This document shows positions 54,522 through 61,027 of a stretch of 64,000 nt of DNA, in pieces. How positions within the stretch are numbered: position 1 is the first letter of the stretch; every line of letters begins with the position of its first letter. A program made the position numbers and the translations under genes. The notes under the pieces were generated by a model. It had not been told where the DNA came from. It made no database searches and saw nothing but the letters and a program-made list of their open reading frames with translations. This DNA comes from an uncultured Chthonomonadaceae bacterium (GTDB lineage: Bacteria; Armatimonadota; Chthonomonadetes; Chthonomonadales; Chthonomonadaceae), in NCBI GenBank assembly GCA_963835065.1, contig CAWIEK010000011.1:1-64000 (forward strand), given 5' to 3'.

Positions 54522-55973
54522 ATGACTTCTCTGCCGACTGGAACAATTACGCTGCTGTTTACCGACATCGAAGGCAGCACCAAACTATGGGAGCAATACC
54601 CCGCCATTATGCGCGACGCGCTGATACGGCATGACGCGCTTGCCGACTCGGTTCTGGCGGAACACAGCGGCCACCTTGTCAAGCCGCGCGGCGAGGGCGA
54701 CAGCCTGTTTGCCGTTTTTGCCCGCGCCAGCGATGCAGTTGCCGCCGCCTTCGATCTGCAGCGCACCCTGATTTTTGAACCCTGGCCGCTGCATACGTCC
54801 CTGCGCGTTCGCATGGCCCTGCACACCGGCGAAACGCTGCTGCGCGACGGCGACTATTACGGCCCGACCGTGAACCGCTGCGCCCGCCTCCGCGCCACTG
54901 CGCACGGCGGGCAGGTGATTGTTTCGCAAGTGACTCGCGACCTCGCGCAAAACGCGCTGCCGGACGGCGTGACGCTCACCGATCTGGGCTTACACAAGCT
55001 CAAGGACTTGACGCAGGCCGAACACGTGTGGCAGCTTGTCCACCCCGAACTTCCCGCCGACTTTCCGCCCCTGAAATCCCTGCGCGAAAGCAATCTGCCC
55101 CTGCAAACGACCTCGTTTGTAGGCCGCGAAAAAGAGATTGCCGAATCCGGGGAGTGCCTTGCCAACACGCGCCTGCTGACCCTGCTGGGAGCCGGGGGAA
55201 CGGGCAAAACGCGCCTGAGCCTGCATCTCGCGGCGGAAGTCGGCGATACGTATCCCGATGGCCTCTGGCTTGTGGAACTCGCGCCGCTTTCCGACCCCGC
55301 CCTGGTTCCGCAGGCCGTCGCGTTCGCGCTTGGCGTCCGCGAGGAGCCGGGACGCGCGCTGACCGAAACCCTGCTGGAACACTTGCGCGGCAAAAATCTG
55401 CTCCTGATCCTCGACAACTGTGAGCATTTGCTGGATGCCTGCGCGCGATTTGCGGATCGGGCGTTGCGCGTCTGCCCCGATATTCGCCTGCTGGCAAGCA
55501 GCCGGGAAGCGCTTAACATTCCCGGCGAAGCCACATATCGCGTTCCCTCCCTCGGCCTGCCCTCACCCGAACATCAGACCCCACAGACGCTGCTCCACTC
55601 CGCCGCCGCCTGCTTGTTTGTGGAGCGCGCGACAGCCGCCCGCAACGACTTCGCCGTCACCGACGCCAATGCCGACGCCATTGCCGCCATTTGCCGCCAA
55701 CTCGACGGTATCCCGCTGGCTCTGGAACTCGCCGCGTCCCGCGTGAAAGCGCTGTCACCCATACAGATCGCCGCCCGCCTGGATGACCGTTTCCGGCTGC
55801 TGACGGGCGGCAGCCGGGGCGCGCTGCCCCGTCAGCAGACCCTGCGCGCCCTGATTGACTGGTCGTATGACCTGCTTTCCGAAAAGGAAAAGACCCTGCT
55901 GCGCCGCCTGTCGGTATTCGCCGGCGGCTGGACGCTGGAAGCGGCGGAAGCCGTCTGCGCCGACCCGGAATAG
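54522..55973 (+). CDS. Class III nucleotide cyclase + STAND (NB-ARC-like) ATPase, ending mid winged helix
   Basis: LFTDIEGST, GEGDS, DYYGPTVNRCARL; SFVGRE, GAGGTGKT, LILDNCEH, LDGIPLALELAA, LSVFAGGWTLEAAEAVC then stop. Confidence 0.92.
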   Translation: MTSLPTGTITLLFTDIEGSTKLWEQYPAIMRDALIRHDALADSVLAEHSGHLVKPRGEGDSLFAVFARASDAVAAAFDLQRTLIFEPWPLHTSLRVRMALHTGETLLRDGDYYGPTVNRCARLRATAHGGQVIVSQVTRDLAQNALPDGVTLTDLGLHKLKDLTQAEHVWQLVHPELPADFPPLKSLRESNLPLQTTSFVGREKEIAESGECLANTRLLTLLGAGGTGKTRLSLHLAAEVGDTYPDGLWLVELAPLSDPALVPQAVAFALGVREEPGRALTETLLEHLRGKNLLLILDNCEHLLDACARFADRALRVCPDIRLLASSREALNIPGEATYRVPSLGLPSPEHQTPQTLLHSAAACLFVERATAARNDFAVTDANADAIAAICRQLDGIPLALELAASRVKALSPIQIAARLDDRFRLLTGGSRGALPRQQTLRALIDWSYDLLSEKEKTLLRRLSVFAGGWTLEAAEAVCADPE

Positions 55974-56046
55974 CGCAACCAGGCAGTTGATGGTTGATAG
56001 TTTGTAGTTGATAGAAATACCGAACACCGAATTCCTTAATTCAAAA

Positions 56047-57318
56047 ATGAGCAATCACGCAGGAACCACACATCTATCAGGAACCACAAACGCCAACGCT
56101 CTGCAAGTCGAGGAACCGGCTGATGTGGAGGCATGGGAAGTTCTCGATCTGCTGCAATCGCTGGTGGATAAGTCGCTTGTCGTGTACGAAGAAAACGCGG
56201 ACGGGCAGGGCCGCTACCGCCTGCTGGAAACCGTACGGCAGTACGCGAATGATAAGCTGACCACATCGCAGGAAGCGGCAGTCGTTCAGGAGCGGCATTG
56301 TACCTACTATCTTGGTTATCTGACGACGATTGAGCCAATGCTTGCCGGCGCGCGGCAGGCGGAAGGTTTGTCCGCGTTGGCGCAGGAACATGATAACGCG
56401 CGCGCCGGCATACGATATAGCCTGCATCGGCAGGATACTGAAACCGGCTTCGCATTTGCGCGCGGCCTGCAGCGCTTTTGGGGAATGCGGGGCCATCTGG
56501 AGGAAGGACGCGCATGCGCTGAGGCGCTGCTCACGTTGGATGAGCGGAATGCGCCTTCGCCGGCGCGGGGCGTTGTTTTGCATGGAACGGCTATTTTGGC
56601 CTATAAACAAGCGGATTACCTGGCCGCCCGCGCCATGCTCGAACAAAGCATTGCCATTTTTTTGCAGTTCGGCGATGAAGCGCGGCGCATGGCTTCCCTG
56701 CACGCGCTGGGAAACGTCGCCTATTTTCAGGGTGACTTCGCGGCAGCCCAAACCACGTATGAGCAGAGCCGCGCGCTTGCGCAAGAGCGCAATGATTTGC
56801 GCGGCGAGACTCTGGCCTGGCATGCGCTTGGAAACCTGGCCTATCAGCGCCGCGATTTTACGGAGGCCGGGCGATGTTATGAACAGTCGCTTGTTCGCGC
56901 GCGTTCTCTGGGCGATGCGCAGGCTCTTGCGCAGGCGCTGCTTTGCTGCGGCATTATCGCGGCGGAACAGGAAGAATACGTCAGGGCAAAACCCTTTTTC
57001 GATAAAGCGCTCACAACTCTCCTGCAATTGCAAGATCAGCATGGGATCGCCAATGTGCTTCATAATCAGGCGCATCTTTTCGTGCTGCAGAACCGTATAC
57101 GGCCCGCGTCGCGGCTTTATGGCGCGCATGACAGCCTGCGCGACAGGCTGAAATCGCCTGTACATCTTTCCGACAAAGCCGATTACGATCAAGACATCGC
57201 GTTATGCCGCGCCACTCTGGGTGAAACGACATTCCAGCAGGAGTACAATCAGGGGCGTATGCTCGATTCCGAAGCGGCTGTTCAGTTTGCTCTTGACGCT
57301 TCGGAGGCCGCGCTATGA
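56047..57318 (+). CDS. Winged-helix C-half + TPR module 1 (start uncertain)
   Basis: WEVLDLLQSLVDKSLV..RYRLLETVRQYA, EHDN, TPR repeats. Confidence 0.85.
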   Translation: MSNHAGTTHLSGTTNANALQVEEPADVEAWEVLDLLQSLVDKSLVVYEENADGQGRYRLLETVRQYANDKLTTSQEAAVVQERHCTYYLGYLTTIEPMLAGARQAEGLSALAQEHDNARAGIRYSLHRQDTETGFAFARGLQRFWGMRGHLEEGRACAEALLTLDERNAPSPARGVVLHGTAILAYKQADYLAARAMLEQSIAIFLQFGDEARRMASLHALGNVAYFQGDFAAAQTTYEQSRALAQERNDLRGETLAWHALGNLAYQRRDFTEAGRCYEQSLVRARSLGDAQALAQALLCCGIIAAEQEEYVRAKPFFDKALTTLLQLQDQHGIANVLHNQAHLFVLQNRIRPASRLYGAHDSLRDRLKSPVHLSDKADYDQDIALCRATLGETTFQQEYNQGRMLDSEAAVQFALDASEAAL

Positions 57319-58631
57319 GCCATGAAGCCGTTGAAAATTGGGAAATTCTCGATCTGCTGCAATCGCTCGTAGACAAGTCGTTGGTGGTTCACGAGGAGGG
57401 CGCGGACGGGCAGGGGCGCTACCGCCTGCTGGAAACCGTGCGGCAGTACGCGAGTGAAAAGCAGGCCGCGAGGGACGAGAACATCGCCTGCCGCGCCCGG
57501 CACGGCGCTTTCTTTCTTGCGCTGGCCGAGGAGACGCGAACCAGACTGCGCGGGCGGGAGCAGGCGCAGTGGCTCACGCTGCTGGAAACCGAACACGACA
57601 ACCTGCGCGCCGCGCTCGCCTTTTACCGCGCGACGCCGGACGCCTGGGAAATGCAGGCGCGGCTGGCCGCGTCGCTGACGCGCTTCTGGACGGTGCGCGG
57701 CTACCTGCGCGAAGGCCGCAAACATCTGGAGGACGCGCTAAATCACCCGGACGCGCAGCCCAACGCCAGGGCGCAGGCTGACGCGCTGGCAGGCGCGGCG
57801 AGCCTGGCCTATGAACAGGGCGAGTATAAGCCCGCGCAGGCGCTGTGCGAGCAAAGCCTTGCCATTCATCAGGAGCAGGGCAATCAGGAAGGCGTTGCCG
57901 CCGCGCTGAACAGGATGGGATTGATCGCCTGGCAGCAGGGAGAACTGGCCCGCGCCCGCGTCCATTTGGATGAGTGCCTGGCGATTCGCCGCAAACTTAC
58001 GGATCGGCAATCCCTGGCGGCTTCGCTGTTGTGCCTGGGATTGATCGCGCAGCAGGAGGGGAACGGCTTGCAGGCCCGCGCCCTGTATGAGGAAAGCCTG
58101 CTGATTTTCCGGGAACAGCAGGATATGCTGCATACGGCGGCAGCCTTGAACAATCTCGGCACGATTGCCAGAGAACAGGCGGATTACGAGGGAGCGCGGC
58201 TGCTGTTCGCGGAAAGCCTGTCGTGCTATCAGGCGCTCAAGCACAAAGGCGGCATCGCGCTGATCCTGCTGAATCTGGGCCGTCTGGCGCAGATTCAGCA
58301 GGATTACGAGTCGTGCCGCAGTCTGGTACAGCAAAGTTTCGCGCTGTTTCAGGAAATCGGGGATCGGCACGGCATTGATTCCGCGCTGGAAGTTCGCGGG
58401 GAAGCCGCGCTTGCCTCAGAGGAATGGGAGCGGGGCGCGCGTCTTAGCCTGGCTCGCGCCGCTTTGTGGGAAAACATGGGCAACGTTATGTCCGCGCAGC
58501 AACGCGAAGAGCAGGAACGCGCCCTGCAGCATTGCCGCTTCCATCTGCCCGGCGAAAGGTATGACGCGATTGTAGAGGAAATGCGCGACCTGACACCCGA
58601 ACAGTTCCTTGCGTCCGCAATGCGCGAATGA
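57315..58631 (+). CDS. Winged-helix C-half + TPR module 2
   Basis: GGAGG SD, ATGA overlap, WEILDLLQSLVDKSLV..., TPR repeats. Confidence 0.88.
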   Translation: MSHEAVENWEILDLLQSLVDKSLVVHEEGADGQGRYRLLETVRQYASEKQAARDENIACRARHGAFFLALAEETRTRLRGREQAQWLTLLETEHDNLRAALAFYRATPDAWEMQARLAASLTRFWTVRGYLREGRKHLEDALNHPDAQPNARAQADALAGAASLAYEQGEYKPAQALCEQSLAIHQEQGNQEGVAAALNRMGLIAWQQGELARARVHLDECLAIRRKLTDRQSLAASLLCLGLIAQQEGNGLQARALYEESLLIFREQQDMLHTAAALNNLGTIAREQADYEGARLLFAESLSCYQALKHKGGIALILLNLGRLAQIQQDYESCRSLVQQSFALFQEIGDRHGIDSALEVRGEAALASEEWERGARLSLARAALWENMGNVMSAQQREEQERALQHCRFHLPGERYDAIVEEMRDLTPEQFLASAMRE

Positions 58632-58644
58632 AAACAGACGCGAT

Positions 58645-58720
58645 GCAAACGTAAACGAAGCCACGACCAATGAAATCTCTATAAACGAAACCTCTACAAA
58701 CGAAACCTCTACAAATGAAG
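58645..58720 (+). repeat. 15-nt tandem repeat (AACGAAACCTCTACA-like)
   Basis: About 5 degenerate units. Confidence 0.7.
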
Positions 58721-58730
58721 GAGACGCCGC

Positions 58731-59952
58731 ATGAGCGAGGCAACGGCAATCGCGTTGTGGGAAGTTCTCGACCTGCTGCAATCGCTTATAGACAAGTCGC
58801 TTGTCGTCTATGAAGAAAGCGCGGACGGGCAGGGCCGCTATCGCCTGCTGGAAACCGTGCGGCAGTACGCGAATGAAAAGGAGACGGCGGAAGATAGCCG
58901 TGCCCTTTCCGGCAGGCACGGCGCGTATTTCCTCGCGCTGGCCGAAGAAGCCCGGACGCATTACGACAATGACGCGCAGAGAATCTGGATGCAGCGCCTG
59001 GAAACGGAGCATGACAATGTGCGCGCCGCCCTCCATGCAAACGCGGCGGCAAGCGGAGCATCGGCAGGCGGAGGAGATCGCGGGTGAAAAACTGCGCTTT
59101 GTCGCCGCGCTTGCCAAGTTCTGGTGGACTCGCGGCTACATGACGGAGGGCCGCGCCTGGGCCGCTTCCGCCCTTGCCCGCTCTGCAAATGCCCCCGCAA
59201 GCCTCCGCGCCGACGCGCTGCATGGCGGGGGCATCATGGCCGCGATGCAGGGGGATTATGGGATCGCGCAGGAGTGGCTTACCGAAAGCCTGGCGCTGCA
59301 GCGCGCGGAAAACCAACCGCGAGAAGCCGGGCTTGTTCTGCGCTCTTTGGGCGCGCTGTACACGGATATGAACGAGCAGGCGAAGGCGCGCGCCTGTCTG
59401 GAAGAGGCGCTGGCGCTCTTTCGGGCGTCAGGAGACCGGCGCGGCATTGCGTCGGTTTCAGGGACACTGGGCATTGTGTCCGCCCGGCAGGACGATCTTG
59501 AGGGAGCGCGCGCCATGATGGAAGAAAGCCTGGCCGTCCTGCGCTCGCTTGGGGATGCGCAAAGCGTCGCCAACACCCTGCACAATCTTGGCGTGGTTCT
59601 GGAATCCTCCGGGCATGTCGAGCGGGCGCGCGCCTGCTACACCGAAGCGCTGCAACAAACGCTGGCATTGGGCAACAAACTCTATCTGTACTGTTCGCTG
59701 GAAGCGCTGGCCGGGGTTGCCGTCACGCTCAATCACCCGGCCCGCGCCGTTTGCTTGTATGCCGCCGCGTTTGCCCTGCGCGAAAGCGTCCACGAGCCGC
59801 ACAATGAGGCCGATTATGCCCGCGCGATGAAGAGGCTGCAAACATTGCGGCAGCAATTGGGCGATGCGGCCTACCAATCCGCCTACGCGCAGGGCAGCGC
59901 CATGACCCTGGATGAGTCGCTGGAATACGCCTTGAGCGATGAGGACAGGTAA
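58731..59952 (+). CDS. Winged-helix C-half + TPR module 3, frameshift near 59030-59050
   Basis: AAGGAG SD; 58731..59087 holds the shared block, the 58801..59952 frame holds FWWTRG and the TPRs. Confidence 0.8.
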
Positions 59953-60010
59953 GGCATTAGGCATTAGTCATTAGGCATTAGATATTAGATATTAGATATT
60001 AGATATTAGG
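59953..60010. repeat. Heptamer tandem (GGCATTA/GATATTA)n, single arm
   Basis: About 8 units; same units as 45066-45101. Confidence 0.85.
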
Positions 60011-60042
60011 GTGAACCGCTTGCTGTGAGAGATGAGGGGAAG

Positions 60043-61027
60043 ATGATTGATTTGGAAGAACTGCCGATGCGCGTTGCTGTCGGGCAGATGAACGAACTGA
60101 CGGACGAGCAACTGGCGTTTGCGCAGCAGTGCGGCGTTCAGGACGTGCAATTGAACACGCCCAAACTGCCCGGTGAGGAACGCTGGGAACTGGAAGACCT
60201 GCGCGGCTTGCGGCAAAAGGCGGCGGCGCGCGATTTGCGCCTGATTGCCATAGAAAACGTGCCCATCGCCTTTTACGACAAAATCATGCTGGGATTGGAA
60301 GGGCGCGAGCGGCAGTTGGAGAACATGCGCGCGACAGTGCGTAATATGGGGAAGGCCGGTATTCCTATTTTGGGCTACCACTGGATGCCCAATGGCGTGT
60401 GGCGCACGGATTTTGCCACGCCGGTACGCGGCGGCGCGATCTCCAACTCGTTCAAATATGCGCTGGCAAAAGACGTGGCGTGGACGCACAGTGTGGAATA
60501 CTCCGAAGCCCAAATGTGGGCCAATTACGACTGGTATCTGGAGCGAATTCTGCCGGTCTGTGAGGAAGCGGGCGTTCGCTTTGCCCTGCATCCCGACGAT
60601 CCGCCCGTGCCCACGCTTGGCGGCGTGGCGCGTTTATTCCACAGTTTCGATAACTTCCGGCGCGCGCTGGAAACCCATGCCAAGTCCCATGCACGGCCTG
60701 GATTTTTGTCACGGCTGCTGGTCGGAAATGCGCGGCGGTGCGGGGATTCTGGAGGCTATCGAGTGGTTTGGCAGCCGGAACCAGATTTTTTATGTCCACC
60801 TGCGCGACGTGCAGGGTTGTGCCGAAGACTTCACAGAGTGCTTTCTGGATGAGGGCAACAGCGACATTGTGGCGGTAGTTCAGAAACTGAAGGACGTGGG
60901 CTTTCGCGGCTTTATTCTGGACGACCATGTTCCGCATCTGGTGAACAACTCGCCCTGGGGCCATCGCGGACGCGCTTTTGCCACCGGCTATCTGCTCGGC
61001 GTCCTCCATTCGGTCAACAAAAGATAG
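60043..61027 (+). CDS. Mannonate dehydratase-like (UxuA family), frameshift near 60670
   Basis: NMGKAGIPILGYHW, ALHPDDPP, GLDFCHG, YVHLRDV, DHVP. Confidence 0.8.

Follow-up and report, generated by a model that had tools for sequence, protein, structure and literature searches.

What becomes of a receptor whose gene stops in the middle of a winged-helix domain (WHD), and what is the part of three genes behind it that each begin with the missing half of that domain? This question is raised by a locus of an uncultured Chthonomonadaceae bacterium whose genome assembly (G000) comprises 8.0 Mb in 71 contigs at 91.9% completeness. The stretch analyzed, called the window throughout, consists of positions 1–64000 of contig C11 (64,000 nucleotides), and all locus coordinates refer to it. 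The locus contains one core gene, encoding a nucleotidyl cyclase joined to a signal transduction ATPase with numerous domains (STAND), the switch class to which immune receptors of plants and animals also belong, and three sensor-half genes on the same strand, and the cut between core and sensors lies inside the WHD. We put the probability at roughly 60% that these genes encode a cyclase-STAND receptor divided within the WHD into one core and three sensors, each of which is predicted to dock on the core in trans. The parts of the locus are as follows:

54522–55973, forward strand: core half of 483 amino acids (aa), defined by its open reading frame (ORF), Pfam matches, the motif columns of 34 split cores and the break as mapped on the model of a fused paralog.
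55974–56124, forward strand: spacer that separates the core from sensor 1 and is closed by stops in every frame; it may hold a short, unconstrained leader beginning at ATG 56047.
56125–57318, forward strand: sensor half 1, with the last WHD helix and wing, an arm and an array of tetratricopeptide repeats (TPR), defined by ORF, Pfam and block comparison.
57315–58631, forward strand: sensor half 2 of 438 aa, with the shared block, the arm and about nine TPR-like hairpins, defined by ORF, Pfam and a structural model with a predicted local distance difference test score (pLDDT) of 88.5.
58632–58730, forward strand: spacer that separates sensor 2 from sensor 3 and contains a 15-nt tandem repeat as well as the Shine–Dalgarno sequence (SD) of sensor 3.
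58731–59952, forward strand: sensor half 3, with block and TPR array, frameshifted in this assembly, defined by ORF and Pfam.

The core combines a cyclase with a P-loop NTPase. Its residues 5–153 match the Pfam family Guanylate_cyc with 47.1 bits (cut-off 21.9), which places them among the class III nucleotidyl cyclases; the 34 split cores all share D15, K54 and R122, and nearly all share D60 and N118, five residues that by their motif positions, not by a structural alignment, are candidates for the catalytic set of two metal Asp, a substrate Lys and a transition-state Asn and Arg. P-loop families match residues 196–314, AAA_22 with 32 bits against a cut-off of 27, nSTAND1 and AAA_16 below their cut-offs. 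A Walker A motif, GAGGTGKT, lies at about aa 223–230, a Walker B motif, LLLILDNCEH, at about aa 292–302, and a helical domain (HD) with DGIPLA is present; G223, G226, G228, K229 and D298, the P-loop residues expected of a STAND, are invariant in the 34 split cores. The chain ends in LEAAEAVCADPE directly before the stop codon, its final residues being AEAVCADPE. It thereby holds WHD helices 1–3 only, and a GxP helical domain with a complete WHD is obtained only if the core and sensor chains are counted together.

Each sensor gene begins 3–9 codons ahead of a 38-aa block, WE(V/I)LDLLQSL(V/I)DKSLVV.EE.ADGQGRYRLLETVRQYA, which lies at 56134–56247, 57339–57452 and 58758–58871; compared in pairs, the copies agree in 34–36 of 38 residues and in 87–91% of bases. 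The TPR arrays diverge: sensors 1 and 2 are 39% identical and sensor 3 is 30–31% identical to the others, while all match TPR_12 and related families. Sensor 2 opens with an ATG 8 codons before the block tryptophan and a GGAGG 7 nt upstream of this ATG, sensor 3 with an ATG 9 codons before the tryptophan and an AAGGAG at the same distance, and the stop codon of sensor 1 overlaps the ATG of sensor 2 (ATGA). A preliminary description, made from the letters of this stretch alone, had placed the three block copies at exactly these coordinates, and the divergence of the arrays and the separate SD and ATG of sensors 2 and 3, which it also reported, are borne out. Its count of three sensor genes holds for sensors 1 and 2, both of which are open; sensor 3 is not one open gene in the window but is spread over two frames, with frame 0 running from 58731 to 59087 (118 aa) and the TPR part following in frame +1 (58801–59952) from about 59065.

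The same description had the core gene end in a stop with further stops in all three frames behind it, and this is what we find between 55971 and 56012: frame 0 is closed at 55971, 55995 and 55998, frame 2 at 55988, 56009 and 56012, and frame 1 at 56005. The core is read in frame 0 and sensor 1 in frame 1. Read-through or frameshifting as a means of joining core and sensor 1 is ruled out by these stops.

The position of the cut within the fold was determined on a model of residues 190–640 of a fused paralog from contig C51, built with 21 relatives (pLDDT 88.7; predicted template modeling score 0.83). Foldseek matched this model to Apaf-1 (PDB 1z6t; E 9e-11, TMq 0.60), MalT (8bob; 0.59), PH0952 (6mfv; 0.50) and also plant nucleotide-binding leucine-rich repeat receptors (NLRs), and the fused paralog is therefore a STAND with the order nucleotide-binding domain (NBD), HD, WHD, arm and TPR array. 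The NBD-HD-WHD fold of solved STANDs is thus seen on a fused paralog of the same genome. The stop codon of the window's core maps to loop 296–301 of the C51 model, between WHD helix 288–295 and helix 302–314, and the core therefore keeps three WHD helices. Past helix 302–314 the model continues with a hairpin (319–323/326–330) and a helix (333–346), so that each sensor gene supplies the final WHD helix with its beta-hairpin wing, followed by the RYRLLET stretch, an arm and a TPR array. In the fused paralogs of G000, an AEAVC-like motif and LL.SLVDKSLV...RYRLLET are contiguous in one chain and fall into one winged-helix domain in the model, as the preliminary description had stated for proteins of this kind. 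The separate model of sensor 2 is a TPR solenoid (pLDDT 88.5) whose half-WHD alone (residues 1–60) reaches a pLDDT of 60–72, compared with 82–94 for the equivalent elements in the fused-paralog model, a difference that weakly suggests a pairing of the two halves.

The split is neither decay nor artefact. A contig from an independent biocrust metagenome (X2, record 10; 2532 nt, 97% identical, 83 differences) spans 54678–57210 and keeps the core stop, the spacer and the junction; its indels lie only in the spacer (+1 and −2 at 56030 and 56036), with none inside the sensor 1 gene. The core is under selection: in the X2 comparison, for which the core and sensor 1 substitutions were counted from 34 of the 83 differences, 18 synonymous stand against 3 non-synonymous changes among the 21 listed for the core. 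Sensor 2 is likewise under purifying selection, the listed differences comprising 14 synonymous and 8 non-synonymous changed codons in X2 and 14 and 9 in a further strain (X1), which at about 210 synonymous and 667 non-synonymous sites amounts to a ratio of non-synonymous to synonymous rates (dN/dS) of about 0.2 in both strains; X2 also has a 3-nt deletion at 58140 that stays in frame.

The X2 contig also narrows the start of sensor 1, for which TTG 56008, ATG 56047 (no SD) and GTG 56125 (GAGGA 10 nt upstream) are candidates: TTG 56008 is excluded by the net −1 indel at 56030–56036, and if ATG 56047 is read as the start, all three X2 changes listed in codons 12–21 are non-synonymous. For sensor 3, contigs of the runs X1 and X3, which stem from one study, show deletions at 59052 and 59060 together with an insertion behind 59064, a net −1 that brings its two frames into register. 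An assembly indel is as likely a cause of the frameshift as a real mutation, because uxuA just downstream and six paralogs elsewhere are also frameshifted in this assembly. The preliminary description is thus upheld on the junction, across which no continuous ORF leads into sensor 1, and in part on the integrity of the other two modules: sensor 2 is maintained (dN/dS about 0.2), while sensor 3 is frameshifted in the assembly and in register in X1 and X3. A search of 30 relatives for an ortholog of the locus at the DNA level was negative, with matches of 66% at best.

Is the cut peculiar to this locus? Residues 300–483 of the core were compared with database proteins of 265–846 aa and gave 7953 matches below 1e-15, in a length window that leaves out full-length fused forms and from which no frequency is derivable. 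Among the best 120 matches, 48 end −1 to +9 residues from the window's end, 47 of them besides the window's own protein (P0121); these cut cores are mostly 484–498 aa long with a cyclase, lie on contigs of up to 210 kb and come from four sources. The 34 cut cores used above extend from a start codon through ...AE.VC(A/S)D plus 1–9 residues and are 53–95% identical to each other (median 65%), with invariant Walker A, Walker B, GxP and cyclase columns. PF25872, a candidate model of the WHD that is precomputed on many database matches, is absent from the split cores. Searching with sensor 2 against database proteins of 240–767 aa, of which the best 120 were scored, yielded 36 detached sensor halves: 24 of the 120 have their first residue in the range from 18 residues ahead of the block tryptophan to 10 residues into the block, 15 of these 24 starting with a methionine after short, unrelated leaders, and in 12 of the 120 a CxxC...CxxC zinc ribbon with a Pro/Ala linker is fused directly to the block and replaces the NOD (nucleotide-binding oligomerization domain). 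The break point that the preliminary description had proposed from a single locus is therefore shared by relatives, in 47 other database cores and in recurrent detached sensor halves, and the family does not consist solely of full-length fusions. Three further cut cores were found among 401 Armatimonadota genomes, in G182, G303 and G085 (top three matches of each genome; 150 of 257 matches listed).

When 112 N-regions are arranged in a tree, the split cores cluster, with 11 changes of state compared with 31.7 after shuffling and none of 500 shuffles as low, for a set whose database cores were chosen for their likeness to the window, which favors clustering. Several clades are entirely split and have internal branches of 0.05–0.3; the split state therefore persists through divergence. 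Judged from these sequences, the cut is real and old, and it recurs as a minority form of the family.

If cut cores and free sensor halves belong together, they should be found in the same genomes. In G000 the split affects a single core tail out of 29 and three blocks out of 26, all of them at the window locus, whereas the chains of the 28 fused paralogs continue past the cut. G085 has a sensor gene about 20 nt after the stop of its cut core, followed by the contig end; in G182 (10 contigs, 99% complete) a single cut core goes with two free sensor halves, both unlinked; G303 has one cut core and one zinc-ribbon sensor half. The five high-quality controls G054, G223, G142, G341 and G157 contain neither a cut core nor a free sensor, and all of their 75 core tails and 43 blocks lie in open frames of at least 778 aa. 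Free sensor halves are thus present in 4/4 genomes with a cut core and in 0/5 fully checked controls, which makes the co-occurrence of cores and free sensors suggestive. G001 and G005, whose cores were examined among the top three matches only, also hold no free sensor.

From the anatomy of the locus we infer that core and sensor assemble in trans. A sensor half would dock on the core, one at a time, and complete the WHD, supplying the lid that closes the NOD on ADP as well as the autoinhibitory arm. A ligand bound to the TPR array of the docked sensor would then open the NOD, allowing the exchange of ADP for ATP and head-to-tail multimerization, which would bring the cyclase domains together and lead to the formation of cAMP or cGMP. 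With three sensors for one core, the output would correspond to an OR-gate over three inputs. We propose this mechanism because autoinhibition by contacts of WHD, arm and sensor with the NBD is documented in MalT and PH0952: PMC6468293 describes how the NOD is held closed on ADP by contacts that the NBD makes with the wing of the WHD, with H12 and with the arm. Whether bacteria have, beyond this, come to maintain over long spans a plug-in receptor of the NLR type, in which a core lacking the closing half of its WHD is completed in trans by interchangeable sensors, adjacent or scattered and some with zinc ribbons, so that one second-messenger output serves a changeable detector repertoire, is in our estimate an even call.

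Several observations weigh against such an assembly. In the locus itself, sensor 1 has no clear start and its body shows 4 synonymous and 4 non-synonymous changes among the listed X2 differences, and sensor 3 is frameshifted in this assembly. Moreover, at positions with identical residues the sensors use the same codon in 76 of 102 cases inside the block (75%) versus 138 of 295 outside (47%). The higher codon identity of the block points to gene conversion as well as selection, and some conversion among the sensors is therefore likely; it fits a shared interface and is equally the main argument for a recombination cassette. Outside the length-limited searches the split form is rare: a contig scan of the Genome Taxonomy Database (GTDB) with the 34 split cores, which had no length filter, picked generic motifs and returned mostly fused genes, contained 1 split tail among 90 besides the window's (83 fused, 6 unclear), and a metagenome scan with the split core P0181 (79 loci) contained none among 85 (82 fused, 3 unclear), P0181's own contig not being among these loci and the best match being 71% identical. 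A metagenome scan with sensor 2 found nothing. In the tree the split cores do not form one clade, and starred branches force at least 7 state changes; the cut must therefore have been gained or lost repeatedly. The co-occurrence falls short of statistical proof because the sample is small and its genomes are related. Cut cores also occur without a sensor at hand: L102 has none within 8.6 kb downstream, L103 has no recognizable free sensor half beside its cut core, and L066 has no adjacent sensor in the 1 kb of contig that follows the core. Finally, the zinc-ribbon fusions show that a sensor half can live in another context.

These last two points are shared with the alternative that survives best, which we nevertheless regard as unlikely, namely that the halves never come together: the core would act as a truncated cyclase-NTPase without a sensor, either constitutively or under some other control, and the proteins composed of WHD helix and TPRs would be independent scaffolds or competitive regulators that insert into or cap the NODs of fused paralogs, for which the 28 fused paralogs of the genome are possible targets. 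Under this alternative the 12 of 120 sensor-half relatives with a zinc ribbon and no NOD, and the cut cores of L102, L103 and L066 without an adjacent sensor, are easily accommodated. It sits poorly with the restriction of free sensors to the genomes with a cut core, given that the 0/5 controls hold 43 blocks and 75 tails, and with the adjacency of core and sensors in the window, where sensors 1 and 2 even overlap by ATGA. Moreover, even in sequences that are only 53% identical, the end of the one half and the beginning of the other fall into the same WHD loop, and the half-WHD is poorly placed when folded alone.

A recombination cassette array resembling CdiA-CT or Rhs tips, in which sensor ends would be exchanged by homology at the 114-nt block and the split would be a by-product, is the second alternative, and we consider it quite improbable. 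The tandem modules do combine a 5′ block of 87–91% identical DNA with proteins of 30–39% identity, and the codon identity of the block (75% versus 47%) is of the kind expected, but in any case no other stretch is as conserved across the family as the block. The arrangement of orphan-cassette arrays, in which the expressed gene carries the block and the cassettes lack starts, is absent because the core ends before the block and sensors 2 and 3 have an SD and an ATG; the expressed core hence offers no homology site. Sensor 2, furthermore, is under purifying selection as a full gene, and cut cores also occur with unlinked sensors. The third alternative, a broken fused gene with pseudogenized tandem copies or an assembly artefact, draws on the frameshifts in sensor 3, the neighboring uxuA and six paralogs, on the fragmented and 91.9% complete assembly and on the loci L009 and L011, which are broken in a simple manner close by (one by a mere frameshift, one by a deletion) and which we rejected as the same break, but it is very improbable in view of the junction and stop kept in the independent 97% contig, the same end in 47 other cores, the substitution patterns of core (18 versus 3) and sensor 2, the net −1 that returns sensor 3 to register in X1 and X3, and a separation of the halves by about 150 nt with stops in all frames instead of a single indel.

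How does a receptor assembled from a core and exchangeable sensors compare with known systems? The closest likeness is to the 28 fused cyclase-STAND-TPR paralogs of G000 (e.g., C51 and C30), which have the same domain order (cyclase-NBD-HD-WHD-arm-TPR) and the block motif and are 56–58% identical to the core over its 483 aa. They are, however, single chains of about 880–960 aa, whereas at the window the WHD loop is the end of the chain, and separate genes encode three alternative C-terminal halves. Such single-chain cyclase-STAND-TPR proteins are presumably of the mycobacterial Rv0386 type. MalT and PH0952 (PDB 8BOB and 6MFV) share the NBD-HD-WHD-arm-TPR fold and the TPR sensor, but are single chains with DNA-binding effectors and one sensor each.

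Halves of a receptor that work in trans have a precedent in the plant NLR Rx (Moffett 2002, as cited in bioRxiv 10.1101/2023.11.30.569466): as described there, a CC-NB-ARC half, containing the NTPase, and a leucine-rich repeat (LRR) half associate and respond to ligand. This split differs in being laboratory-made, in lying after the whole NB-ARC and not inside the WHD, and in having one sensor built of LRRs and not of TPRs. Plant NRC sensor-helper networks resemble the locus in that many diversified sensors feed one signaling unit; their sensors and helpers are each complete NLRs with a NOD of their own, whereas the window's sensors lack an NTPase and would complete a domain of the core. The orphan C-terminal cassettes of polymorphic toxins, as described in PMC3482391, are likewise tandem alternative C-terminal modules each headed by a conserved block; at the window, by contrast, the block is missing from the expressed gene, the modules bring translation signals of their own and, for sensor 2, are under purifying selection, and no toxin is present.

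Full-text literature searches returned no description of a STAND cut inside its WHD and accompanied by several sensor genes. Term searches in the main text of PMC13581612 and PMC7159879, which survey STAND and conflict systems of prokaryotes broadly, gave no such split either; all that PMC13581612 mentions there is that 'split proteins' were dealt with in the analysis of one family. Within this scope, the searches agree with the preliminary description, which had not recognized the arrangement as described.

STAND and NLR switches are viewed as one-chain devices whose sensor, arm and WHD keep the NTPase shut. If core and sensors do assemble, the autoinhibited state can be built across chains, and inputs can be diversified simply, with no duplication of the enzyme. 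The locus would then offer a natural template for modular, re-targetable NLR-like sensors, and it would become possible to test in vitro, on small soluble parts, which WHD and arm contacts suffice for autoinhibition and ligand-coupled opening. Should no assembly take place, the free sensor halves still represent a gene class that recurs, awaits an explanation and is linked to truncated cyclase-NTPases.

Profile searches add some details on the locus proteins and their relatives. In a fused paralog NB-ARC scores 25.6 against a cut-off of 23.5, and cyclases of trypanosomes and mycobacteria are among its sequence matches in the PDB, where nothing matched the NOD. PADLOC models had 0 matches for the core, which thus joins neither the anti-phage STANDs covered there (Avs, bNACHT) nor Pycsar; sensor 2 matches only the generic TPR model, and a fused paralog weakly matches PycC (E 1.8e-6) over its cyclase domain. 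No NCBIfam model exceeded its cut-off for the locus proteins.

The family as a whole is hugely expanded, with the 29 core tails in G000 and 75 matches to sensor 2 in G011. In a library of 1.84 billion representatives, 152,020 cluster representatives match the core at E ≤ 0.001; the best 150 are all at least 561 aa long, and as split cores may have been merged in the 50% clusters, no split fraction follows from this search. Non-cyclase N-terminal effectors are common in the family, in open frames of 1100–1400 aa. The zinc-ribbon sensor halves without NTPase (P0011, P0013, P0022, P0030, P0031, P0035, P0057, P0069, P0082, P0084, P0088 and P0118) have a further member in L112 (G303, contig C28) and form a recurrent gene class. 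The core P0150 and the sensor P0081 both lie on a contig of 96,981 nt. In the Chloroflexota loci L029, L031, L032, L047, L048 and L053, two fused cyclase-STAND-TPR genes stand in same-strand tandem with tails about 2.7–5.4 kb apart; duplication of whole genes in tandem thus appears to be common in the family, unlike the duplication of sensor halves at the window locus.

Just downstream of the locus, uxuA (D-mannonate dehydratase, 60025–61027) is found in two overlapping frames, by frameshift or assembly indel, with positions 17–131 of the UxuA profile in 60025–60852 and positions 233–352 in 60392–61027, a state that bears on how the sensor 3 frameshift is read. The six STAND-TPR paralogs that tblastn finds in two frames each (on contigs C53, C3, C60, C26, C6 and C32) are frameshifts or assembly errors as well and break at positions other than the cut of the locus.

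Promoter and terminator scans gave nothing useful within the locus. Both spacers contain tandem repeats: between sensors 2 and 3, the 15-nt unit AAACGAAACCTCTAC occurs 4.5 times at 58653–58719, and contigs of X1 and X4 have a 14-nt duplication after 58627 that repeats the region of the sensor 2 stop codon. Between core and sensor 1, the heptamer AGTTGAT is repeated 4.3 times at 55985–56014. As a regulatory element specific to the locus, these heptamer repeats are ruled out by the occurrence of heptamer arrays throughout the genome: G000 has 666 exact heptamer tandem arrays of at least 4 copies, compared with 0 for periods of 5, 6 and 9 and 8 for a period of 8. Recurrent units are CTGTTCC, CTATCAA/GTTGATA and CAGGGAA, and the window contains examples at 55985–56014 and 59955–60009. 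The arrays resemble the short tandem heptamer repeats of cyanobacteria, and heptamer repeats also lie 3′ of the cut core at L066, in another Armatimonadota genome.

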